From positions 1 through 49,765 of the forward strand of contig CAYFSA010000005.1 of the NCBI GenBank assembly GCA_964345605.1: DNA of 49,765 nt, read 5' to 3'. Below are positions 28,887 through 46,821 of the stretch, in pieces. This stretch comes from an uncultured Ectothiorhodospiraceae bacterium (GTDB taxonomy: Bacteria > Pseudomonadota > Gammaproteobacteria > CAYFSA01). A program made the translations under genes and the position numbers. Each line of letters begins with the position of its first letter. Position 1 is the first letter of the stretch. The notes beneath the pieces were generated by a model, which made no database searches, was not told the origin of the DNA, and worked only from the letters and a program-made list of their open reading frames with translations.

Positions 28887-30236
28887 TTATTTGCCGATGC
28901 AAAACCGCGAAAATATTTCACCTAACAAAGCCTCATTTGAGGTTTGCCCGGTAATCTCGCCCAGCGCAAGCTCGGCGGTTTGCAGCTCATCAGCGAGCCA
29001 ATCTGCAGTGCCTTGCTTGGCTAGTGTCCGTTGAGCTGCATTTACTGCCAAGTGGCAGCGTTTCAAGGCATCGATGTGGCGCCTTCGCGCAGCAAATCGA
29101 TGCTCAGCTTGCCCGCGGCTTTGAAACAGATTCTGTAAATGCTCGAGCAATACGTCGATCCCATAACCATCGCGAGCCGACAGATACAGCTTGTTATCCT
29201 GCCAGCCGTATGCATGGCCGGACAGATCCGATTTATTGGCAATAATGTCGACAACAAAGCCTTCATCATGCAGGTCAATCTGACCATAAACTGCATCATC
29301 GTCGCTCGTCCAGCCTTCACTGGCATCAAAAACAAACAAGGCGCGATCAGCTTGTTGCAAGGCAAGTTGCGTGCGATTGTGGCCTTCCCGCTCGAGCCGA
29401 TCACCGCCTTCACGCATCCCCGCCGTATCTAGCAGGCGTATCGGAGTACCATTGACATCGAGTGTTTCTTTCAAGATATCCCGAGTAGTGCCCGGTATCT
29501 CCGTGACGATGGCATCGGCATCTTTGCATAGTTGATTGAACAAACTTGATTTACCAACATTAGGACGGCCTACGATAGCAATGGTCAAGCCTTCCCGTTG
29601 GAGTACAGCATCGTGGGCTTGAGTTATCAGCGCCGCCAGTGATTGGCCGAGTTGTTCAAGCTTGTCGGCAACTGCGTAGTCTTCAATACCATCGAGCTCT
29701 TCCTCGGGAAAATCCAAACTCGCCTCGACAATAATGCGAATTTCATGCAGCTGTTCAGCCAGCTGCTGCAAGTAACGGGAAAACTCACCCTCCAGCGATT
29801 TAAGGGCCGCTTTGGCAGCACGCTGCGATTCACTTGCAATCAGATCGGCAATAGCTTCAGCTTGAACTAAATCAATCCGATCATTATAGAAGCCGCGAAA
29901 ACTGAATTCACCAGGTTCTGCCAGTCGCGCACCCTGGGCTAAGGTAGCCCCCAGCAACATGTCCAGCACTACAGGTCCGCCATGCCCTTGGAGTTCTAAC
30001 ACATCCTCCCCCGTAAACGAGGTCGGCCCAGGGAAAAAAATGGCAATACCCGAATCGATAACTACCCCTTGAGAATCGCGGAAGTTGCGCCAATGCGCAT
30101 AACGTGGCCGTAGTTGGCCGACCATGGCTCGCATTATTGTCGCAACCCGCGGTCCCGACATGCGGACGATACCTATGCCGCCAGCTCCGGGCGGAGTTGC
30201 CACGGCGGCAATCGTATCGCCTAACACAAAGTTCAT
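28887..30236 (-). CDS. mnmE: tRNA modification GTPase MnmE (TrmE)
   Basis: GRPNVGKSS, GTTRD, DTAG, NKSD and the C-terminal FCIGK. Confidence 0.97.
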   Translation of the reverse strand: MNFVLGDTIAAVATPPGAGGIGIVRMSGPRVATIMRAMVGQLRPRYAHWRNFRDSQGVVIDSGIAIFFPGPTSFTGEDVLELQGHGGPVVLDMLLGATLAQGARLAEPGEFSFRGFYNDRIDLVQAEAIADLIASESQRAAKAALKSLEGEFSRYLQQLAEQLHEIRIIVEASLDFPEEELDGIEDYAVADKLEQLGQSLAALITQAHDAVLQREGLTIAIVGRPNVGKSSLFNQLCKDADAIVTEIPGTTRDILKETLDVNGTPIRLLDTAGMREGGDRLEREGHNRTQLALQQADRALFVFDASEGWTSDDDAVYGQIDLHDEGFVVDIIANKSDLSGHAYGWQDNKLYLSARDGYGIDVLLEHLQNLFQSRGQAEHRFAARRRHIDALKRCHLAVNAAQRTLAKQGTADWLADELQTAELALGEITGQTSNEALLGEIFSRFCIGK

Positions 30237-30243
30237 AACCGGT

Positions 30244-31965
30244 TCAACGCGTCGCTTTCTCCACTTTGCGCGTAATCTGCCATTGCTGGGCGATGGATAA
30301 TGTATTATTAACCACCCAGTACAATACCAAACCGGCGGGGAAGAACATAAAGAAGACGGTAAATACGACAGGTAATACCATCATGACTTTTTGTTGAATC
30401 GGGTCTAAAGGTGCGGGGTTCAAGTACTGCTGAATAAACATGCTCGCACCCATAATCAACGGCAGCACGAAATACGGATCCCGCACCGACAGATCGTCGA
30501 TCCATAGAATAAACGGGGCTTGACGCAGCTCCACACTCTCGATCAATACCCAATAGAGGGCGATAAATACCGGGATTTGAATCAAGATAGGCAAACAGCC
30601 ACCCAGCGGGTTGACTTTCTCCTTTTTATACATATCCATCAAGGCTTGATTCATCTGCGATTTATCATCGGCGTAGCGTTCCTTTAGCTCCTGCATTCGG
30701 GGCTGCAAAGCACGCATCTTAGCCATCGATTGATAACTCACCTTGGAGGGATAATAGAACACCAATTTAATCAGGATGGTTACCAAAATAATAGCGAAAC
30801 CCCAGTTCCCTGTTAAGGAATGACTAAACTGGAGTGCCTCGAACAAAGGCCTAGAAATAAAGCTGAAAATACCGTAATCAACGGTGAGATCCAGACCTGT
30901 CGCGAGTTCCTCAAGGTTTTCCTGTATTTTAGGCCCAGCATAGAAACGAGTGCCTAGCACACCCGATTGCCCAGGCGCCACTGACATTGGCGTTGAAGTA
31001 ACCCCAATGATGTAATTGGGGACCAAACCACTATCGATGGTTTTACTGTAATAAAGATGCCGTTTTTGCTGGTCCGGAATCCACGCGGAAATAAAATAAT
31101 GTTCCAGCGATGCCACCCAGCCGCCTTCAATAGTCTGACTCAAAGACTCTTTTTCAAGCTTATCGAACTTAACTTTATTAAAACTTTCATCGTAGTAGGC
31201 AAAGCCAGTGAATGTACGAATAAAGGCGTTATTCCCATCGTTTTGTTCCGGACCATGGCGTATCTGCTGATATTGCCGTCCTTCCCAAAGGGTATCGCTC
31301 CTATTCTCCACTTTGTATTCGATATCGACGTGAAAACTGTCGGCGTGGAACACGAAGGCTTTGGTTACACGCACGCCATCCCGGCTCTCCCAAACCAACG
31401 GCACCCGTAGTGTTTCATCGTCCTGCTGCATCGTATAGTTTGATTGGTAGGCAGCATAATTGGCGTAATGATCGGGAGCGCGTTCACGGCCGCCGCCGCT
31501 CGACGCCGAAGCCGGAATAAGCCCAGATTGAGCAATATAGGTTTCACCTCGGTCATCTAGCAGCTGCACTGGTGTGTCGGGTTTATCAGTGGATACCGGA
31601 TATGTCGGCAAAGCTACTCGACGGATATCCCCACCTTTCAAGGCTATATCGACAATCAAATGTTCTGTTTTGACATGAACATATTCTTTGGCCGAGTCTT
31701 GATCTTTATCGCTGGACGGTGGTGCTGCCGGCCCGCCGGGACTGGGCAAATCCTCAGGAAACTCGGCGTTAGCATCGGCTTGCAATTCACCCGGCTCTTC
31801 ACTTGTTGCTGGCCCCGCTTGGAAATCAGATGCCTCAGACGTCTCACCCGCGTCACGTTGCGCTGGCGTTGGCACAGGTGATTGGTAATCTTCGACCCAA
31901 GCTTGCCATATCAAAAAAAGGACAAATGCTAAGGCAAGGTAAAGAATCGGACGTTGCGAACCCAT
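30244..31965 (-). CDS. yidC: Membrane protein insertase YidC
   Basis: VDYG, GNWG, NPLGGCLP and PAGLVLYW motifs. Confidence 0.97.
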   Translation of the reverse strand: MGSQRPILYLALAFVLFLIWQAWVEDYQSPVPTPAQRDAGETSEASDFQAGPATSEEPGELQADANAEFPEDLPSPGGPAAPPSSDKDQDSAKEYVHVKTEHLIVDIALKGGDIRRVALPTYPVSTDKPDTPVQLLDDRGETYIAQSGLIPASASSGGGRERAPDHYANYAAYQSNYTMQQDDETLRVPLVWESRDGVRVTKAFVFHADSFHVDIEYKVENRSDTLWEGRQYQQIRHGPEQNDGNNAFIRTFTGFAYYDESFNKVKFDKLEKESLSQTIEGGWVASLEHYFISAWIPDQQKRHLYYSKTIDSGLVPNYIIGVTSTPMSVAPGQSGVLGTRFYAGPKIQENLEELATGLDLTVDYGIFSFISRPLFEALQFSHSLTGNWGFAIILVTILIKLVFYYPSKVSYQSMAKMRALQPRMQELKERYADDKSQMNQALMDMYKKEKVNPLGGCLPILIQIPVFIALYWVLIESVELRQAPFILWIDDLSVRDPYFVLPLIMGASMFIQQYLNPAPLDPIQQKVMMVLPVVFTVFFMFFPAGLVLYWVVNNTLSIAQQWQITRKVEKATR

Positions 31966-32015
31966 AATGATTTGGTCGTCTCTAGAATTGGTATTGGGTT
32001 ATATCGAAACCATTA

Positions 32016-32420
32016 TTAGACGATCAGATATCGCCACTGTTTGTTCAGGCATTGATGCAATTCAGCTGATCGCGCCTTCGCTGCCATTGGCCGAACCCGA
32101 ACAACGACATCTACTGTCGGCAATTCCCATTGATGGCATCGAAAACTTTCCCGAATGATGCGTTTGACTCGCTGACGATCCACGGCCCGAGGAACTTGAC
32201 GCCTGGCAGCCACCAACCCAAGGCGAGGGTAACCAAGCGTATTGAGTTTTGCATGGATATAGAAATAGGTGCCTCTTTGGCGCGATGAATCTGCAAACAC
32301 ACGCCGGAATTCGTGGGACTTTAATAGCTTTAACTGCTTGGGAAACTTATAGCCTGAATACCGGCGCGTATTTGCGTCATCACACTGCCAACCGATGACG
32401 TCCTTTTGCTCGACGGGCAT
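32016..32420 (-). CDS. rnpA: Ribonuclease P protein component (start ambiguous)
   Basis: [33 protein letters not shown] (RNR-like motif) and DVVV; position downstream of rpmH. Confidence 0.9.
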
Positions 32421-32514
32421 TAATCACCTTGCGGCCACCACGAGTTTTCATACGAGCGCGAAAACCGTGCGTCCTTTTGCGCTTCAAGACACTGGGCTGA
32501 TATGTGCGTTTCAC
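32380..32514 (-). CDS. rpmH: 50S ribosomal protein L34
   Basis: Not in the ORF track; manual translation from GTG gives [44 protein letters not shown]; GAGG RBS. Confidence 0.97.
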
Positions 32515-32522
32515 GTGAAACC
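32507..32522. promoter_or_regulatory. parS site overlapping the rpmH start codon
   Basis: CGTTTCACGTGAAACC has a perfect 14-bp core of the parS consensus TGTTTCACGTGAAACA. Confidence 0.75.
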
Positions 32523-32558
32523 TCTCGACTCAGTCGGTTCAGTAAAGGATAAACGAGA

Positions 32559-32587
32559 ATTGTGAGCTAGCCGAAACGGAATGTCAA
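32559..32587 (-). promoter_or_regulatory. Putative sigma70 promoter of rpmH
   Basis: TTGACA-N17-CACAAT on the minus strand. Confidence 0.45.
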
Positions 32588-32612
32588 AAGCTCACAACCA
32601 CGTCCACGTCTC

Positions 32613-32621
32613 TGTGGATAA
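32613..32621. promoter_or_regulatory. DnaA box in the dnaA promoter region
   Basis: TGTGGATAA (reverse complement TTATCCACA) upstream of dnaA, a classic autoregulation position. Confidence 0.8.
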
Positions 32622-32685
32622 CTTTCGACTGAGCAGATAGACTTAATGTTTTAACAATAATCCAGTGACGAGGAGTTATCACTTT

Positions 32686-34044
32686 ATGGGGGCTGATCTT
32701 TGGCAACAATGTGTTGAGTGGCTTGAGCGAGAGCTTCCCGAGCAATCAATAAACACATGGGTCCGGCCGCTGCATGCTGTTGAGGAAAACAATCAGTTAA
32801 AGCTTCTCGCACCGAATCAGTTTGTCATCGAGAACATACGAGCGCATTGCTTAGTGCATATTGAAACTGCCCTCTTAACGTTACGCCCTAAAAATACTCC
32901 TACCATTAAGATCGAAGTTGGTTCGAACAAGCGTTCAGGCAATAGCGCATCCTCTTATACCCCATCAGGAGATAATGAAGCTGACATAAACAAAAGCAAT
33001 CCGCCAAAACAAACTCAAAAATTTGCCAATTTATTAAATGAGGAGTTCACATTCGAGAATTTTGTCCAGGGGAAATCTAATCAGCTAGCCCGTGCAGCCA
33101 CACTTCAAGTCGCTTCGAATGTGGGCAAAGCCTATAACCCACTGCTTATCTACGGTGGCGTTGGGCTGGGTAAAACGCACTTGATGCATGCCGCCGGCAA
33201 TCAGATTATAGCCCTGGATGGTCAACGCAAAGTGGTCTATTTACATTCTGAGCGATTCGTTGGGGATATGGTCAAAGCACTGCAGCATAACCAGATCAAT
33301 CAATTCAAAAATTACTATCGTTCTGTGGATGCCTTATTGATCGATGACATTCAGTTCTTTGCAGGCAAAGATCGTTCACAAGAGGAGTTTTTCCACACAT
33401 TCAACGCCTTGCTGGAAGGTCAGCACCAAGTTATTTTAACCTGTGATCGTTATCCAAAAGAGGTCTCAGGGCTAGAAGACCGACTAAAATCAAGGTTTGG
33501 CTGGGGCCTAAGTGTTGCTGTCGAACCACCTGAATTAGAAACCCGGGTAGCCATTCTCAAAAAGAAAGCTGAACAAGCCAGTATAGAGCTGCCATCTGAT
33601 GTGGCATTTTTTATCGCAAAACGTTTACGTTCCAATGTGCGGGAGTTAGAGGGAGCGCTTAAACGTATTCTGGTCAACATGCAGTTCACTGGCAAGCCTA
33701 TCTCATTGGATCTAGTCCGTGACGCATTGCGTGATACCCTGGCATCTCATGAGAAGCTTGTTACAGTGGAAAACATTCAAAAGACCGTGGCCGAATACTA
33801 CAAGATCCGTGTTTCGGATTTGCTTTCTGCACGCCGCAATCGTCAGTTGAGTCGGCCGAGACAACTTGCTATGGCGCTGGCCAAAGAGCTAACTAGTCAT
33901 AGTCTTCCAGTCATCGGCCAGCATTTTGGAGGCAAGGATCATACAACGGTTCTATATGCTTGTCGCAAGATCAATGAGCTTCGTCAAAGCAATCCGCAAG
34001 TCGAAGAAGATTATACCAATCTCATTCGGACTTTGAGTACATGA
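32686..34044 (+). CDS. dnaA: Chromosomal replication initiator DnaA
   Basis: [32 protein letters not shown] and KDHTTV motifs; ATG 32686 with an AGGAG RBS. Confidence 0.99.
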
Positions 34045-34261
34045 GCTCAAGCTGTGGATAACTCTGTGGATAACCCTGTGAGTAAGTTGTGGATAAACCT
34101 GTGGATAAAATCAGCGCTCCAGTTATCCACATGTTATCCACTGCTTATCCACAGACTTATCCACAGATATTTTATTTTTTAAAACAGTAAGTTAAGTTAC
34201 TTTTCCACAAGTTACACAAAGCCTAATAATAATAGGTTTTATATATTTAGGATATATTACT
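34045..34261. other. Replication origin oriC
   Basis: TGTGGATAA boxes at 34053, 34065, 34088 and 34100 (degenerate at 34077); TTATCCACA boxes at 34123, 34145 and 34157 (one mismatch at 34134); TTTTCCACA at 34201; CTA-ATA-ATA-ATA trios at 34223-34234; AT-rich tract. Confidence 0.9.
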
Positions 34262-35362
34262 ATGCACCTGGAGATCTCCCGCGAACAACTCTTTCCAGCA
34301 CTTCAGCGTGTGGTTGGCGCCATCGAACGAAAACAAACCAACCCAGTGTTGGGCAATATCTTAATCGAAGCAACGAATGATATAGTTACGCTGACTGGCA
34401 CCGATTCGGAACTGGAAATCGTCACCAGTGTTCCAGCTACGATCATTGATATGGGTAAGATGGTCATACCTGGACGCAAATTGTTCGATATCTGTCGCTC
34501 ACTGAGTAACGATGCCACCCTCTCCATTGAGAAAGATCATCAGCAGGCCAAACTCCATGCTGGCAAAAGCCGATTTGTTTTAGTCACCGCTAAACCTGAA
34601 GATTTCCCTGTTAACCAATCGATTTCGTTTATATCCAATATTCGGTTACCTGAAGGTTCATTGAAAACAATCTTGGAGCAAACCAGCTTCGCTATGGCCC
34701 ATCAAGACGTGCGTTATTATTTGAATGGAACGTTGCTAGAGTTAGAGCAGGGTTTCATCCGCAGTATCGCAACAGATGGGCACCGTCTCGCTTATGCGCA
34801 ATGCGGTATTGATACCGATGTAGGTGATAAACAACAGATTATATTACCGAGAAAAACAATACTGGAATTACAACGCTTATTGGAAAATGAAACAGCGCTT
34901 AGTCAAGTAGAGTTCGGCGAACGCCATTTCCGCATCACGACTTCGAGTTTTCGATTAACCTCTAAGATCGTTGATGGTCGTTTCCCCGATTACACGCGAG
35001 TTATTCCTCAGGACGGCGATAAGGAGATCATGCTTTCCCGTGAAATACTTCAGAAAACCCTCAATCGCGTAGCAATTTTGAGTGCTGAGCGCTATCGAGG
35101 GGCTAAGTTAATATTGCAGCCTGATAATTTAACTCTCGTAGCTAGTAATCAAGAACAAGAGATGGCCGAAGAAGAAATTGCCATTGACTACCAGGGCGAA
35201 TATCTTGAAATCGGGTTTAATGTAAATTATCTAATAGATGTTCTTTCAGTTATTAATAATCAAGAGGTTAAGATATCATTGAAAGATGCGGATAGTAGCT
35301 GTCTTATTACTGACCCGAATTCAACTGATATGCTCTATGTGCTCATGCCAATGCGCTTATAG
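34262..35362 (+). CDS. dnaN: DNA polymerase III beta clamp
   Basis: QDVRYYLNG, ATDGHRL, GRFPDY and C-terminal MPMRL. Confidence 0.98.
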   Translation: MHLEISREQLFPALQRVVGAIERKQTNPVLGNILIEATNDIVTLTGTDSELEIVTSVPATIIDMGKMVIPGRKLFDICRSLSNDATLSIEKDHQQAKLHAGKSRFVLVTAKPEDFPVNQSISFISNIRLPEGSLKTILEQTSFAMAHQDVRYYLNGTLLELEQGFIRSIATDGHRLAYAQCGIDTDVGDKQQIILPRKTILELQRLLENETALSQVEFGERHFRITTSSFRLTSKIVDGRFPDYTRVIPQDGDKEIMLSREILQKTLNRVAILSAERYRGAKLILQPDNLTLVASNQEQEMAEEEIAIDYQGEYLEIGFNVNYLIDVLSVINNQEVKISLKDADSSCLITDPNSTDMLYVLMPMRL

Positions 35363-35370
35363 CAAAAGCT

Positions 35371-36444
35371 ATGCGCCTTAAGCAGCTAGAACTCCATAAT
35401 ATCAGGAATATCATTAAGACCCAGCTAACATTCGATGATGATATCAATCTTATAATAGGCAACAATGGCTCGGGTAAAACGACCTTACTGGAAGCCATTC
35501 ACAGCTTATCAACCGGTAAATCGTTCAGAACATCAACTGTTCGCCAGCTAATCCAGGCCGATAACTCCGCAAGTCTAATCAGAGCAGAAATTCAAACCAA
35601 GCCGAATCAAAAACCTGAACTGCTTTCTTTGGGCCTTACGCGCAATGGCATCAAAATCAAGCATCAAAACGAAGGAGACATCGGACTTGCGAGATTAGCT
35701 GAACTTTGTCCTGTTGTGGCCATCCATCCACGCAGCAGTGAAATTATTCTCGGCAGCCCGGACAATCGCAGACGCATCCTTGACTGGGGTGCTTTTCATG
35801 TGATTCCCGAATATATCAACTATTGGCGTGATTACAATAATCTTCTGAAGCAGCGCAACGAGGTCCTCAAGCAGGGTGATGCTTCCTGGTTGGCTGCCCT
35901 CGATACTCAATTTGTAAAAGCAGCGACTCAACTATTCCACTCGCGTTTGCATTACCTCGAGCTTCTCATTCCATATATTCAGCCTTTTTTTGACTGGTTA
36001 CTGGAAGGACAAGCAGTTACTCTCAGATACAAACATGGCTGGTCAGCACAAAGGGAATTCCAGGAAGTCCTGCAACACGCTATAGCAGATGATATATACC
36101 GGGGTTTCACTCAAGTCGGGCCACATCGAGATGACCTTGAGATACGACTCAACCATGGTCTGGCCAATCAGATAGCTTCCAGAGGTCAAGTCAAATTGAT
36201 GATCTATTCAATCTATTTAGGGCAAGTGAGATGTTTATATGCGGAGAAAGAGAAGCGACCAGTGGTGTTATTGGATGACTTCGATTCAGAGTTTGATCTG
36301 AACAGTACTGCGCTTGTTGCTTCGCTGCTTAAGCAAATAGGAACTCAAGTTATTTGTACCGCAACCCGCAATTCAATCGAGCACATCCTGAAGCCAAATA
36401 AAATGTTCCACGTGGAACATGGAACCGTCACTGAATTGGTATAA
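35371..36444 (+). CDS. recF: DNA replication/repair protein RecF
   Basis: GNNGSGKT, GPHRDDL, SRGQ and LLDDFDSEFD motifs. Confidence 0.96.
   Translation: MRLKQLELHNIRNIIKTQLTFDDDINLIIGNNGSGKTTLLEAIHSLSTGKSFRTSTVRQLIQADNSASLIRAEIQTKPNQKPELLSLGLTRNGIKIKHQNEGDIGLARLAELCPVVAIHPRSSEIILGSPDNRRRILDWGAFHVIPEYINYWRDYNNLLKQRNEVLKQGDASWLAALDTQFVKAATQLFHSRLHYLELLIPYIQPFFDWLLEGQAVTLRYKHGWSAQREFQEVLQHAIADDIYRGFTQVGPHRDDLEIRLNHGLANQIASRGQVKLMIYSIYLGQVRCLYAEKEKRPVVLLDDFDSEFDLNSTALVASLLKQIGTQVICTATRNSIEHILKPNKMFHVEHGTVTELV
36404..36419. promoter_or_regulatory. parS site inside recF
   Basis: Perfect palindrome TGTTCCACGTGGAACA, within the codons for MFHVEH. Confidence 0.85.
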
Positions 36445-36466
36445 TGGGGGCTCAATTAAGAGGTAA

Positions 36467-38890
<2,424 letters not shown>

Positions 38891-38901
38891 GTAAAGCTCA
38901 C

Positions 38902-40390: not shown

Positions 40391-42370
40391 TTACACAGCT
40401 TCCAGCCAGCAGCATTGATAAGGTTTAAGTTTTACTTCGCCGGCGGTTATCAGCTCTTGGTCGCCGATATGATCATAGAAAAAGCGACCGAGGCCAGTCA
40501 TGCGCAGGCGATTACCCTCTAACATTTGTTCGTGCTCGGAAAAATTGCCTAAAACAATCAGGCGATGGCCCTGATGACTGCGGATAAAACCTAATACATG
40601 GGGGTTGCCGCTACTGAAAACCTGCATGTTGTTGCCCGTCAGGGCCGGCAGGTTTTTGCGTTTGCTGATCAGTATCTGCATGGTTCGATACAACCGGCTA
40701 TGAATGGATTGACCGTTTTCCAAATCATAAAAATAATTCCAATCCATTTTGGTACGATGAATCCAGCGGCTGTCATTGGCTTTGGCAGGATCTTTAATGA
40801 ACGCATAATCATTCAAGACGCCGAGCTCTTCGCCTAGATAAAGCAGTGGTATACCGCCAATAGTGCAAATCAGACCGTAGAGTAACTGAATACGCCGCAG
40901 GGCCATTTCGACAAGGTAATCGTCATTTTCCTCCAGGGCTTGCTCGAGACCAACCAGGGAAGCCATAGTGCCGGCTATCCGCATATCCTTGGTATCCGGG
41001 TTGTATTGAAACGGTACGCCACGGGCGAACGAACCTGGAAATTCCCCGGTATAAAAGGCATTTAAAAATTGGCGATGATCGAAGGCATTAATGCCGACTG
41101 CCGCCGCATCGTTATCGTCGAAACTCCAGCCGATATCGTCATGACACCGCAGATAATTCACCCAGGCCGTACCGCTAGGTAAGGTATGTCGATGACTTAA
41201 GGACTGATGCAGCAGTTTGATTTCCCGGGTTGCTAAGGCTTCCCAAAGCAGGGCCATCAGGGTCGGATTATAGGACAGCTGGCATTCCTGGACACTGATG
41301 TATTTGACGACTTCATCCGGGTGCACAATGGCTTCGGATTTGAAAGCCAGGCTCGGCGCGGCAATTCGACAGGCATGATTGAAAATCTGGATCAGGGTAT
41401 GGGCCTCGGGCTGATTCTCGCAATTGGTTCCCAAGCGTTTCCAGATGAACGCGACTGCGTCCAGACGCAGGATCTCCACACCCATATTGGCAAGAAACAA
41501 CATCTCATCCAGCATGGCCCGCAGTACTGCCGGATTGCTGTAGTTCAGGTCCCACTGAAAGCTGTTGAAAGTGGTCCAAACCCAGGCATGCAAGCCTTCA
41601 TGCCAGGTGAAATTGCCGCGCCGGACAGTGGGAAAGATTTCCCGCAAATGCTGCTCGTATTGATCCGGGATGCTGCGATCCTTGAAGATGTAATAAAATT
41701 CCTGATATTCCTCATTACCGGCTTGGGCCTGCAAGGCCCAATGATGGTCGTCGGCCGTGTGATTGAAAACGAAATCCAGGACCAGGGAAATGCCATGGGC
41801 CCGCAAGTCTTCAGCGAGATGGCGTAAATCCTCGATGGTGCCCAAGTCAGGATTGATCGAGCGATAATTGCTGATGGCATAACCACCGTCGTTGTCGCCC
41901 GGCCGGACCGCGAATAACGGCATTAAATGCAGATACGTCAGGCCCAAGTCGCGGAAATAATCAATATGCTGGCGAAGCTTGCCAAGATTTTCGCTGAACA
42001 GGTCAACATATAACGCCCCACCCACCATGCGTTCATTCAAATACCAAGAATAATCATTCGCACGTTGTTGGTCGAGTTGCCGTAAGTCGTAGGGTCGCTC
42101 GATGGTTGTTTGCGCCAGCGATTTGACAAGCTCCTCGACATGATAGAAAAAGTCGTAATGATGCCCATACAGGCGATAGAGCTTGGCAAAGAGATCTGGC
42201 CAATAATTATGCAGACGCTGCTCGAACGCCTCGATTTCATCAGCCTTTAGAGGTTGCTCAACGAGTCGGTCGACCAGGATGTTGGCGACTGCGGGCCAAA
42301 TCCTCGCGAGACTTTTATTGGCTTCGTGTTGTAAATCGGCTTTATTTTGAACGTCAATCGACCCAATCAT
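40391..42370 (-). CDS. Amylosucrase / sucrose hydrolase (GH13_4)
   Basis: [18 protein letters not shown] and the intact catalytic motifs LRLDAV, KSEAIV and RCHDDIGW; start is ATG 42370 or TTG 42382. Confidence 0.9.
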
Positions 42371-44528
42371 TGGGAATCGCAATATTGTCTAAGAAATGGT
42401 AAAAATGAATGCCTTCAATAATGCCTTGCGCATGGCCTGATTCGGCAAAATAGATACGCGGGCGGCCGCGCAGATGGGCAATTTCCTTGCTGTGATTGGC
42501 AACCACCACACCCAGGGTATTGCCGCAAAGCATGCCTTCATCACTACCGGAGTCACCGGCGACCAGAATTCTATCCAGGGATAGGCCACAGGCATGCGCA
42601 ATATAACGAAGACATAAATCGGCACCTGCACGTTCTGGGATAATGTCCAAGAAGGCACCGAGAGAAAAAATGGCACGGGCACGCAGGCCTGCCTGACGCA
42701 AACGGCGCTTGACGCCCGTCAGGCTTGGTGCGATCGAGGTATCCATCTGATAACTGATTTTGTAGGGTGTCTGTTCCTTGTCGCTTTGCAAGTTCAGGCC
42801 CGGTAATTCGCCGAGGATTTCCCGAATGCGCTCAGGCTCCCAGTCAAAATCAATTTGATGATGCCAATGCTGATCCAGTGTCTCGCCTTGTTCGGTATAG
42901 ATTTCCGTACCGACTGAAGTGATCATCAGTACCGGCTTGGTTATGGCATATTGGCTGACTAGTTCGCAGGTATCCGCGTAATTGTGGCCCGTAGCGATAA
43001 CCAGACCGATTTCCTCATGGGAATGCAACAGTTGCATCAGTGTTTGCAGCGCTGCTTGTTCGCCGAGCAGTGTCTCGTCAATATTGGTAACCAATAACCG
43101 GTCTATACCGGGTTTGAGCGGTAGCTTCATGTCCCCGACGGGTGATGGTTCACTGACGGGAGCAACCAGTTCCTCAATATCGCGTAAATAGCGATCGACG
43201 TGATGCTGCCAGGAATAATGCTGATGCACCGCTGCCATGCCGTTTTCAGACCATGACTGCCAGGAATCGGTTTCTGTGAGTACCCGCAACAGCCCTTTCT
43301 CGATTGCTTGAGCATCATAAGGATCGACCAACAAACCATTACGGCAATTGGCGAGGACATCCTGATGAGTACCATTTTGCGAGGCGACCACAGGCAAACC
43401 CGCTGCGGCGGCTTCCATCAATGTGAAGCCCAGCGGTTCGACCAATGCCGGATTGATGAACACCCCACCGGAGCTGGCGGCAAAGCGGAACAAAACCGGT
43501 AATTGTTCGGTGGGAAACTGCTTGGGGTAAGCGACCATACCATGCAAGTCGTAGACATCGAACAGCACGAACAGATTGCGCAGAATCCGCTGCTGCAGGA
43601 TGGACATCTGCCGTAAATCGTCCCTTGAACCCATGATCAGGACGAGATTAGCCTGCTGCTGTAGCGTCTTAGAGCGGCCGTAGACATTGACCAGCATTTC
43701 CAGGTTCTGATGTTCGCTGGGGCGATTGATCGCCAGGATCAGGGGACGTTCCGGCGAACTCAAAAAGCGCTTAATCTGGTTGCGCGCCAAATCTTCCAAG
43801 ATGGGGTCGGGAGCCATATCGTAGGCGGTCAGGTCGACGCCTGGAGCAATCACCTCCATGCGCTCGGGAATGTGATTGTGGTAGAGCTTGTAGCGTTCCT
43901 CGACTTCCTGATGGGTGTGCGCGATCACCAGGGAAGCTGTCTCCAGTGCGAATTCTTCAGCCTCGATCTGAGTGGCGAAACTGTAGCGGTTTTCCAGCTT
44001 GTTCTCGTTGTGCCCCTTGCGCAGCAAGTGCTGACGCTGAACGCGGGCGAGTTCGTGGCCGGTGAATACGTACGGCACAGCGAGCAGCCGGGCAAGCTGC
44101 GCACCGGCAAAGCCGCCATTTGCGCCATGACCATGGATGAGATCCGGCCGGACACCGCCACGCCGATAACTGGCTAGCACTTGATCGACAAAGAAATCCA
44201 TGTATGGCCACAGGCGCTCCTTGCGCAGATAGCGTTTTGGCCCGAAGGGGATTCGATAAATCGCGGCCTTCTCGTCAAGTGACTCTTCGAGCTGGGCATA
44301 ATCGCTATCCAGGCGATTGTCGACGACTTGACGAGTGATCAGGTCAATGCGACGAACCTCCGCGGAATGTGCCAGGGCTCGGGTCAGTTCGAGGACATAG
44401 CGTGCCTGGCTGCCGGCATCACCATCCATGCTGCCTTCCAGATCCTTGCCGCGCAGCAGGCCCTGCACGCTGATAATCGCGATGTGCAGGCCCTCGGCCT
44501 CGACATCATCAATGGGTTGACCAAGCAT
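42354..44528 (-). CDS. Sucrose-phosphate synthase-like GT4 + HAD (SPP-like) fusion with degenerate motifs
   Basis: ATG 44528 with an AGGAG RBS; SPS scaffold ([36 protein letters not shown]) plus a C-terminal S6PP-type HAD domain. Confidence 0.85.
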
Positions 44529-45420
44529 CTGTGATCTCCTGGTACAACAGGGCATTATTGGCAATGGCACCGCGCTGGGCACAAATCCGGGCTGCGAACT
44601 CACTGGCCCGCAGCAACACCGTATTGGCCGACCAACCGGCCAACAGGCCGAGGAGTGTGATTGCGGCAAAGCCGTCGCCGGCCCCGACCGAGTCAATAAA
44701 TTCCGCCGGTTTACAGGCCGGCTGCCATGCCTGTTCGAACTCACTAGCCATAGCAGCGCCTTGCTGGCCACAGGTCACGACGATATGGCTGATGCCATGC
44801 TGCTGCCGGAATTCATCGCCGAGCGCCAGAGCCGTATCGACAGTGGGAACCTGATGGCCGGTAAGCGCGGCGAGTTCATCATCATTGAGCTTTAAACAGA
44901 AGATTCCATCGATCAGAGCCGGCAGCCAAGCGAATTCGAACCAGGGTGGCCGGATGTTAATATCAACGAATACCGGTAACCCGAGCCGTTGTCGCCAACC
45001 GAGCAAACGCTCGCGGCTGGCCGTCTCGCGCAGGGCGAGACTGCCGTGGTAAATCATAGCGAACTCGGCAGGTTCCACGACCAGCCGGTCCGGATCGATG
45101 GCGTCGTAGGCTTGCTCGGCCAGAATGTCATAGCTAGGACCCGGGCGCACCTGAACCTGCCCGGTGGGCTCGGCAGCAACCGTCTGCATGCCATCGGTGC
45201 GCATGCCCCAGCTGGCCATTGCGCTCAGGATTGCCTGGCCGGCGTCGTCCTGACCAACGGCACTAACAAAGAACGGTGCCGCACCCAAACCCTGGAGATG
45301 CCAGGCGACATTGAAAGGCGCGCCGCCCAGAATACGGCTGCCATCTGGGAAACAGTCGAATAGCACTTCGCCGATCAGCAAGGGCGTCGCAGTGCTGGCA
45401 GTTGAGTTGGTAATCGACAC
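44509..45420 (-). CDS. PfkB-family fructokinase
   Basis: GEVLFD, GGAPFNVA, KLNDDEL and DSVGAGD motifs; context of a sucrose cluster. Confidence 0.88.
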   Translation of the reverse strand: MSITNSTASTATPLLIGEVLFDCFPDGSRILGGAPFNVAWHLQGLGAAPFFVSAVGQDDAGQAILSAMASWGMRTDGMQTVAAEPTGQVQVRPGPSYDILAEQAYDAIDPDRLVVEPAEFAMIYHGSLALRETASRERLLGWRQRLGLPVFVDINIRPPWFEFAWLPALIDGIFCLKLNDDELAALTGHQVPTVDTALALGDEFRQQHGISHIVVTCGQQGAAMASEFEQAWQPACKPAEFIDSVGAGDGFAAITLLGLLAGWSANTVLLRASEFAARICAQRGAIANNALLYQEITDAWSTH

Positions 45421-45663: not shown

Positions 45664-46821
45664 TCAATTGCTTCGCGGGCCGCTGACTTTGCGGATTTGC
45701 TGGAGCATAAAACCGACGCCCAGACCCAGTTGGGCGTCAGCACGCTCTAACAGGGGCAGCATGGCCTTGAGCAACAGCGGCATGGCCTGATCGACGGTCT
45801 GGCGGTTGCCGACCCGCAGCAGTTCAACCGCCTCGTCCAGGCTAATATTGGCGACCGGCTCGGCCTGTTCAGGTTCACTGGGCGCTGCCAGGGTTTCTGC
45901 AACCAGCTGATTGCCCCCCGCCTCGATGGCCGAGTGCAAAAACGTTTCCGATTGCTGACGCAGCTCTTCAAAGGTGACTTGCATGCCGAGTGAGGGCGTT
46001 ACCAGAGCAGCGCTGATGGTTATGGTGAACCGATCATTGCCGAGCTGAAACCCGGTTTTGCCGGCGCGATAATGGATCCGTTTGGCCGCTTCTTCGGCTG
46101 ATTCATGGCCGCAGCCGTACATCAGCACGCCAAATTTATCCAGATCCAGCCGCGCCACGGTATCCTCGGCGCGGACATTGTTTTGCAGCAGTTTGGCGAC
46201 AAATTGAACAATCTTCTCGGCGACCCGGCGGCCGCGCTGGCGGAACAGCTCGTCAAAATGGTCGATGTTGACCCGCAGAAACGACAGCTCCACACCCTGA
46301 CGAATGGCCGCAGCCAGCTGCTGCGGGCCATGCTGCTCGAAATACAGCTTATTGGGGAAGCCGGTGGAAGGATCGATGGTGGAATGCTCTGGCTGAGGCT
46401 GCGCCGTGACCAGGTTTTCACCGACCCGTACGTGGGCCCGCGCCCGGGCACGCAGTTGCAGGGAGTCAAAGGGCTTGGTGATGAAATCACTGGCCCCCGC
46501 CTCTAAAGCCTGCTGCCGCTTGGTGTCGTCATCATCGGCGCCGGTGATGATGATGACCGGCAGCTCCTGAATACGCGGGTCGCCGGCATTACGGATTGCC
46601 TGCAACAGTTCGAAGCCGTCCTTGTTGGGCATCATCAGATCGGAGAATACGGCACGAATCGTGGCATCGCCTTCCACCGCTTCCCAGCCGAGCTGGCCAT
46701 CGGCAGCTTCGGCCACGTCGTAATCTTCGCGCAGGATGCGCTTTAATGCCATGCGCATCGTAGCGGAATCCTCAACCACCAACAGGCGGGGTTTTTCAAT
46801 GGCGACAGAGGCGTCAGACAT
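45664..46821 (-). CDS. Response regulator with a degenerate GGDEF domain
   Basis: REC domain (VVED, SDLMMP, KPF); the GGDEF motif reads DLDKF and the RxxD I-site (RAED) is retained. Confidence 0.85.
   Translation of the reverse strand: MSDASVAIEKPRLLVVEDSATMRMALKRILREDYDVAEAADGQLGWEAVEGDATIRAVFSDLMMPNKDGFELLQAIRNAGDPRIQELPVIIITGADDDDTKRQQALEAGASDFITKPFDSLQLRARARAHVRVGENLVTAQPQPEHSTIDPSTGFPNKLYFEQHGPQQLAAAIRQGVELSFLRVNIDHFDELFRQRGRRVAEKIVQFVAKLLQNNVRAEDTVARLDLDKFGVLMYGCGHESAEEAAKRIHYRAGKTGFQLGNDRFTITISAALVTPSLGMQVTFEELRQQSETFLHSAIEAGGNQLVAETLAAPSEPEQAEPVANISLDEAVELLRVGNRQTVDQAMPLLLKAMLPLLERADAQLGLGVGFMLQQIRKVSGPRSN

Follow-up and report, generated by a model that had tools for sequence, protein, structure and literature searches.

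A degenerate, genus-conserved sucrose-phosphate synthase gene in a sucrose-cycle module of an uncultured Ectothiorhodospiraceae bacterium

A 49,765-nt stretch of DNA (contig CAYFSA010000005.1, positions 1 to 49,765; hereafter the window) from an uncultured Ectothiorhodospiraceae bacterium (assembly GCA_964345605.1) carries sps*, a gene of the sucrose-phosphate synthase (SPS) family located between fruK and ams, which encode a putative fructokinase and an amylosucrase-like enzyme. Judged from its sequence, sps* is a real, genus-conserved degenerate SPS within a known sucrose-cycle module. Mapped by alignment, its pocket retains the glucosyl contacts and has lost the phosphate contacts, and comparison of orthologues shows that the gene has long been retained under purifying, somewhat relaxed selection. 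The original prediction, made from the letters of the window, had proposed that active-site changes in a preserved fold reflect repurposing as a sugar sensor, a scaffold or an enzyme with a new substrate, an interpretation that is partly supported as a whole.

The gene and its synthase pocket

The features of sps* are as follows.

42354..44528, minus strand: sps*, full-length paralogue of the bidomain SPS-sucrose-phosphate phosphatase (SPP) type with a degenerate synthase pocket, 724 aa (open reading frame, domain profiles, alignment, structure model)
43176..44489, minus strand: GT4 (GT-B) domain, aa 14-451 (profile and alignment)
42393..43100, minus strand: SPP-like HAD domain, aa 477-712 (profile and alignment)
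44536..44540, minus strand: Shine-Dalgarno-like AGGAG, 7 nt 5′ of the sps* ATG, within the end of fruK

The uninterrupted 724-aa frame of the original prediction was recovered on the minus strand, from the ATG at 44528 to a stop ending at 42354 with no internal stop, and plus-strand coding was ruled out. The strong ribosome-binding site also predicted corresponds to the AGGAG, and the frame does overlap both neighbours, by 20 nt with fruK and by 17 nt (ams start ATG 42370) or 29 nt (TTG 42382) with ams. All eleven motif readings quoted earlier were found in the translation. The sps* region is identical letter for letter in two assemblies from possible source runs, which are not independent of each other. 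In two runs of another study, the fruK-sps*-ams operon is intact in one contig, with 128 substitutions over 5030 nt and no indel; because these contigs span the operon, sps* is no assembly artefact, and sequencing or assembly error was rejected as the origin of its changes. Promoter scanning gave 8 sites (4.4 in shuffled sequences) and terminator scanning 12 (6.1), with a single weak minus-strand site 94 nt upstream of fruK; these scans were not relied on.

The protein has the bidomain SPS-SPP layout, a GT4 domain of GT-B fold followed by a C-terminal SPP-like HAD domain. Its synthase domain scores 574.6 bits against TIGR02472 as a protein and 576.4 in the genome search, around the cut-off of 576, and its HAD domain (aa 479-712 in the profile match) scores 260.9 bits against TIGR02471 (cut-off 209.75). 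The preserved fold that had been predicted agrees with the AlphaFold model (52-row alignment; mean pLDDT 87), which in a structure search resembles the SPS of H. orenii, sucrose synthases, the SPS of T. elongatus (TeSPS) and the SPP of Synechocystis.

Within the GT4 domain, Q41, K103, H158, R269, E364 and E372 are retained, and G40S, Y135G, D137N, S159E, K164Q, R187Q, S204H, R273H, K274Q, F366L, L368F, G387T and P388H are changed. The 137 close homologues share 181 positions (within aa 12-446) with conservation of 97% or more; sps* departs from these at 39, beyond what chance would give, and the homologues themselves at 1.0 on average and 9 at most. The same 137 proteins retain Y135, D137, S159, R187, S204, R273 and K274, and the Lys equivalent to K274 is present in 134/139 aligned representatives.

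Pocket residues were mapped on TeSPS by alignment, using the contacts given in the available text of PMC7264703. The orthologue in the second genome of the genus, G001, was mapped in parallel. TeSPS His158, Glu331 and Glu339 correspond to H158, E364 and E372, kept in both species, and SPS motif II (E-X7-E) with the catalytic His is present in all three sps* sequences. Motif I, given as G-X5-GGQ-X2-Y-X2-EL in the available text of PMC9971976, is broken, reading GSQ in sps* and SNQ in G001. In both species the position of TeSPS Arg105 is a Lys, as across the family, Arg178 is replaced by Gln, Arg253 by His, the following Lys by Gln and Leu335 by Phe. Arg249 is kept in sps* (R269) and is Gln in G001, in which Pro332 has become Thr. 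Counted together, the basic phosphate contacts (TeSPS Arg105, Arg178, Arg249, Arg253 and the next Lys) number two of five in sps* (K103 and R269) and one of five in G001. On the acceptor side, Y135G, D137N, S159E, K164Q/H and R187Q strip positive charge and introduce a carboxylate. The predicted loss of nucleotide-sugar contacts was thus borne out by the alignment and extends to the sugar-phosphate contacts.

Two other readings of the pocket need qualification. HGL to QGL was rejected as a sign of repurposing, because QG is found in the active SPS of H. orenii; Q occurs in 22/111 aligned representatives and the G001 orthologue has H. The concentration of changes at active sites is modestly supported, with Fisher p values of 0.23, 0.10 and 0.04 for strand-end loops in windows of 6, 8 and 10 residues.

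According to the available text of PMC7264703, TeSPS H158A and E331A are inactive, while single Arg mutants are reduced but partly active. In the sucrose synthase of N. europaea, Ala at the matching Arg or Lys led to a significant loss of activity (cited second-hand in the available text of PMC6205638). Of the dead synthase domain proposed originally, the cumulative loss of contacts stands, while the equivalents of His158 and Glu331 and the second Glu of E-X7-E are kept. Since H158 and E364 are intact and single Arg mutants kept some activity, it is from the cumulative loss that we infer that sps* no longer makes sucrose 6-phosphate (S6P).

The retained residues bear on an unlikely alternative, that sps* is still an enzyme with changed chemistry: it might slowly transfer glucosyl groups to an acceptor that carries no phosphate, cleaving sucrose or making it from free fructose as sucrose synthase does, or it might be a sucrose hydrolase or transglucosidase that supplies FruK with fructose and amylosucrase with primers. 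H158, E364, E372, Q41 and K103 are kept in both species, R187Q matches sucrose synthases, and His and Gln at 273 and 274 could presumably still hydrogen-bond phosphate. In addition, a profile search found no sucrose synthase above the cut-off in the host genome or G001, and alkaline/neutral invertase is represented by fragments only (L179, G000:C212, 1796-2667, a short remnant with a scaffold gap inside). However, the GGQ loop has become GSQ or SNQ, Lys274 is lost in both species and Arg269 in G001, the EPFG loop differs, and nucleotide diphosphate (NDP)-dependent GT4 enzymes rely on that Arg/Lys pair. GT4 phosphorylases also use this pair.

Retention in the genus and the phosphatase-like domain

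G001 is the only other genome of the genus and is 87% complete. Its sps* follows fruK and the same upstream genes on a contig that ends at residue 446, and this incomplete orthologue scores 519 against TIGR02472. G001 also holds a standalone SPP and its own counterpart of the intact SPS found on contig C29 of the host (see below). Over 436 aa the two sps* proteins share 61% identity, and the proportions of non-synonymous (pN) and synonymous (pS) differences are 0.26 and 0.80; synonymous sites are saturated, so that dS between host and G001 is not estimable. The frame is open, with a one-residue indel only and no stop over 446 aa. Between the two genomes, identity is 53% for fruK, 56% for SPP, 64% for speE, 67% for the GGDEF regulator, 69% for speA and 78% for the intact SPS.

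Both orthologues carry Y135G, D137N, S159E, R187Q, S204H, R273H and K274Q, and identity between them tracks family constraint (136/181 conserved against 40/117 variable positions). Among 152 positions invariant in the 137 close homologues and the C29 SPS, 23 are altered in both orthologues, 14 of these to the same residue. In the tree, the sps* pair forms one clade with support of 100/100 and a long stem. Closer still, the protein P0125 (97% identical) carries every GT-domain pocket change of sps*. The 40 strain-variant rows covered, of 167, reach into the 3′ 200 nt of sps*, where 7 codon changes are synonymous and 1, which matches P0125, is non-synonymous; in ams the figures are 21 and 7. The outcome that the original prediction had equated with simple decay, namely strain-private changes with dN/dS near 1, is not what was found, given a syntenic G001 orthologue 61% identical at saturated synonymous sites.

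It is improbable that sps* is a redundant gene in slow decay whose frame stays open only because translation of ams is coupled to it and a misfolded product would be toxic. This reading is favoured by the gene overlaps on both sides, by faster evolution than the intact SPS, and by the 20 differences from P0125, 3 of which fall at positions at least 97% conserved and are all derived in this strain. Against it stand the level of identity at saturated synonymous sites with an unbroken frame, and a host-G001 dN of 0.32, below that of fruK (0.43) and SPP (0.34); moreover, an in-frame deletion would presumably keep the coupling far more cheaply.

The HAD domain of sps* retains both Asp of motif III (Lys ... 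[G/S][D/S]xxx[D/N]) and lacks the Lys. Absence of this Lys, previously counted among the altered motifs, was rejected as a sign of repurposing because it is clade-wide. In the clade of SPS-SPP proteins from Verrucomicrobia, Kiritimatiellota and Planctomycetes (hereafter PVC-type; L056-L135, P0004-P0143), it is missing from 137/137 close homologues, which keep DxDxT, TGR and mostly GDSGND; their HAD domain is possibly a conserved, non-catalytic S6P-binding domain. Motif I, DxDx[T/V], reads NIDET in this strain and is intact in P0125. Loss of the nucleophile and the change of TGR to TGH, also put forward as repurposing signs, are weak evidence, since P0125 has neither: D482N and R515H belong to this strain only and, by this comparison, are recent changes.

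It is similarly improbable that sps* owes its retention to the HAD domain, which would make up for the dead one of the C29 SPS as an SPP or by binding S6P, the GT domain being conserved only to let the chain fold. P0125 does have DxDxT, TGR and GDSGxD, the HAD domain of the C29 SPS is degenerate, and in the unrelated P0167 a HAD domain with all motifs intact is fused to a GT domain that has degenerated much further. However, sps* has no motif III Lys, in this strain the nucleophile and R515 are gone as well, and both species hold an intact standalone SPP.

Neighbouring genes, host and origin of the module

The flanking genes were described as follows.

44509..45420, minus strand: fruK, PfkB-family kinase, 303 aa, GAGD motif intact; fructokinase by context
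40391..42382 (likely start ATG 42370), minus strand: ams, GH13 amylosucrase-like enzyme, catalytic motifs present

The amylosucrase and fructokinase motifs are present in these genes, in line with the intact state first proposed. Amylosucrase transfers the glucose of sucrose to alpha-glucan and fructokinase recycles the fructose (available text of PMC11046441 and PMC9971976).

The host genome is 3.2 Mb and 97% complete. The second intact sps that the original prediction had suggested looking for is present on C29; its product is 40% identical to sps*, with all synthase motifs canonical (HGL, DTGGQ, HYADA, GHSLG, RPDSRKN, STNQE, EPFG) and a degenerate HAD domain. The statement that no standalone spp exists is true of the locus, but contig C84 encodes one with canonical motifs (DLDRT, SGR, K, GDSGND). 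Given the intact SPS and SPP, sps* would be dispensable for sucrose synthesis and, with synthesis covered elsewhere in the genome, the window operon would supply breakdown.

No photosynthetic reaction centre was detected in the host genome. It encodes two RuBisCO large subunits and has a third, weaker match as well as dsrA, which suggests a sulfur-oxidising Calvin-cycle autotroph. The methanotroph-type setting evoked earlier fits poorly with this, and a pmoA/amoA search, which had no positive control, gave it no support. Directly upstream of fruK, a response regulator-GGDEF gene (45664-46821, minus strand) has the motif LDLDKF and its product is thus probably not a cyclase. The dnaA-dnaN-recF-gyrB origin region (30000-38900) has a GC content of 43-49% against 59.7% for the genome; the GC skew turns near 34-36 kb, and the operon lies about 6 kb from this region.

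The closest proteins to sps* are intact SPS-SPP with 51-55% identity, the named ones being from Verrucomicrobia, Kiritimatiellota and Planctomycetes (best 120 per search). Of 80 PVC-type sps loci, 77, 35 and 64 have ams, fruK and spp, respectively, no more than 5 kb away, and the prevailing arrangement is fruK, sps, ams. The amylosucrase-like genes adjoining these sps are 56-65% identical to ams. All 79 open reading frames examined from such loci keep DTGGQ, HYAD, GHSLG, RxxxxKN and EPFG. Hence the host operon looks like a PVC-type module with sps disabled and spp gone. In the tree, built from 44 rows chosen from a larger set and including one long branch, the sister group of the sps* pair was not resolved and PVC was not recovered as one supported clade. 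Since the tree does not prove a PVC donor, transfer of the operon from PVC is suggested only by the top matches, the gene order and the shared HAD features.

Beyond P0125 and G001, no orthologue with the shared changes appeared in three protein searches covering proteins of at least 245 aa (best 120 of 1525, 833 and 203 matches), nor among 50% representatives (best 150). Likewise, none of 62 candidates from genome contigs searched with the sps* protein carries them, and the one of 214 metagenome contigs that passed encodes an unrelated GT. Of 400 genomes of the class, 104 have a match, and the 51 rows whose motifs were examined (about 50 high-scoring matches left out, and two low-scoring loci rejected by the filter) held no further orthologue. 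As far as these searches reached, the sps*-type degenerate SPS is seen only in one uncultured two-species genus.

Three of 150 representatives, P0167, P0227 and P0292, have a separately degenerate GT domain, two with Tyr135 replaced by Gly; these may be decaying genes, P0167 having a dead-synthase, live-phosphatase layout. In L047 (G020:C23, 8436-10622), DTGDQ replaces DTGGQ in an otherwise canonical SPS, and another genome (G060) holds two full-length SPS-SPP genes with intact synthase motifs (L039, L040) plus a sucrose synthase.

Proposed role and comparison with known systems

The chances are about even that sps* encodes a subunit with no catalytic role which, by binding unphosphorylated sucrose or a partner, adjusts the fructokinase-amylosucrase branch, by analogy with Tsl1 and Tps3 of yeast. 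Plant class II TPS are trehalose-pathway homologues of the same putative-regulatory kind. With intact SPS and SPP genes elsewhere in the genome (on C29 and C84), the SPS-SPP gene of the fruK-sps-ams module became redundant. The alignment shows that, before the two species split, its pocket lost the cations that hold the sugar 6-phosphate and the nucleotide diphosphate, whereas a Glu (S159E) and a sucrose-synthase-like Gln (R187Q) appeared on the acceptor side and the glucosyl contacts H158 and E364 were retained. Purifying selection has maintained the gene since. The folded subunit would bind sucrose (or fructose) in unphosphorylated form, a partner enzyme, or both, and would thereby set when amylosucrase and fructokinase convert osmoprotective sucrose into alpha-glucan and fructose 6-phosphate.

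Several observations weigh against a regulatory subunit. The residues essential in TeSPS (H158, E331) are intact and its single-Arg mutants partly active, according to the available text on that enzyme, making residual or altered catalysis possible. Divergence within the sps* pair is about 2.6 times that of the intact SPS pair (0.82 against 0.31 changes per site), which fits relaxed constraint, and the donor-side loops are unlike between the orthologues (EPLG against ETVA; R269 against Gln). Shared derived residues (16/26) exceed those at variable sites (29/76; p 0.04) but not those at mid-conserved sites (30/48). Sucrose synthases keep Lys at 164 and place a Glu two residues further on, so that the likeness to them is partial. 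The sample consists of two species and three sps* sequences, and the C-terminal half of sps* and ams were not found in G001, which is 87% complete and whose contig ends inside sps*. A complex prediction for the sps* GT domain (14-450) with the amylosucrase (14-576) scored 0.00 and counts neither for nor against a partner.

A bolder form of this proposal, doubtful at present, would make sps* an SPS-derived bacterial sucrose sensor, its pocket rebuilt to bind free sucrose, which gates amylosucrase and fructokinase and stops a futile cycle in an autotroph, as a counterpart of Tsl1/Tps3 and plant class II TPS. If so, the separately derived P0167, P0227 and P0292, of which two share the Tyr-to-Gly change, would be a hint that this route has been taken repeatedly. 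Bacteria with both sucrose synthesis and amylosucrase must avoid futile cycling, by a switch about which little is known. A natural variant keeping glucosyl contacts and dropping phosphate contacts offers a direct test of the roles of the SPS scaffold apart from catalysis, and sps* could be a starting point for a sucrose biosensor, although its reach is narrow, with one uncultured two-species genus. SPS commonly carries a dead phosphatase domain, whose role the available text of PMC9971976 counts among the open questions; a dead synthase domain that has persisted for long next to an intact paralogue did not turn up in the open-access papers searched.

Among known systems, the bidomain PVC-type SPS-SPP are closest to sps* in length, domains, identity (51-55%), missing HAD Lys and IPND tail. 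They keep their synthase motifs, with spp mostly adjacent, whereas sps* has a degenerate pocket and the host carries its spp and an intact sps at other loci. The sps-spp-frk-ams cycle of Synechococcus PCC 7002, as described in the available text of PMC11046441 and PMC9971976, encodes the same four activities, with fructokinase and amylosucrase together, but in the host these genes occupy three loci, and an additional, degenerate SPS takes the operon position. In Synechocystis-type SPS, the available text of PMC9971976 describes a non-catalytic phosphatase domain kept in fusion and proposed to bind or channel S6P, the retention of a putatively non-catalytic domain being the point in common with sps*; there the synthase is active, whereas in sps* the synthase pocket itself is altered. 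Sucrose synthases (PDB 3S27, 4RBN) share the GT-B fold (Z 28, root-mean-square deviation 2.7 Å over 449 residues), and both solved structures have Gln at the R187 position. In contrast to these proteins of about 800 aa, sps* is without the N-terminal SSN domains, has lost the NDP-binding Lys and scores 151 bits against TIGR02470 (cut-off 810). Yeast Tsl1 and Tps3 are, in the available text of PMC9635654, GT20 proteins of eukaryotic trehalose synthesis with shown binding to Tps1/Tps2, whereas sps* is a bacterial GT4 protein and not a member of that group. As synthase/phosphatase homologues without defined catalysis beside active paralogues, and as putative regulatory subunits, they nevertheless offer a works-like analogy for sps*, which has predicted active paralogues in the same genome and, in two species, evolves under purifying selection.

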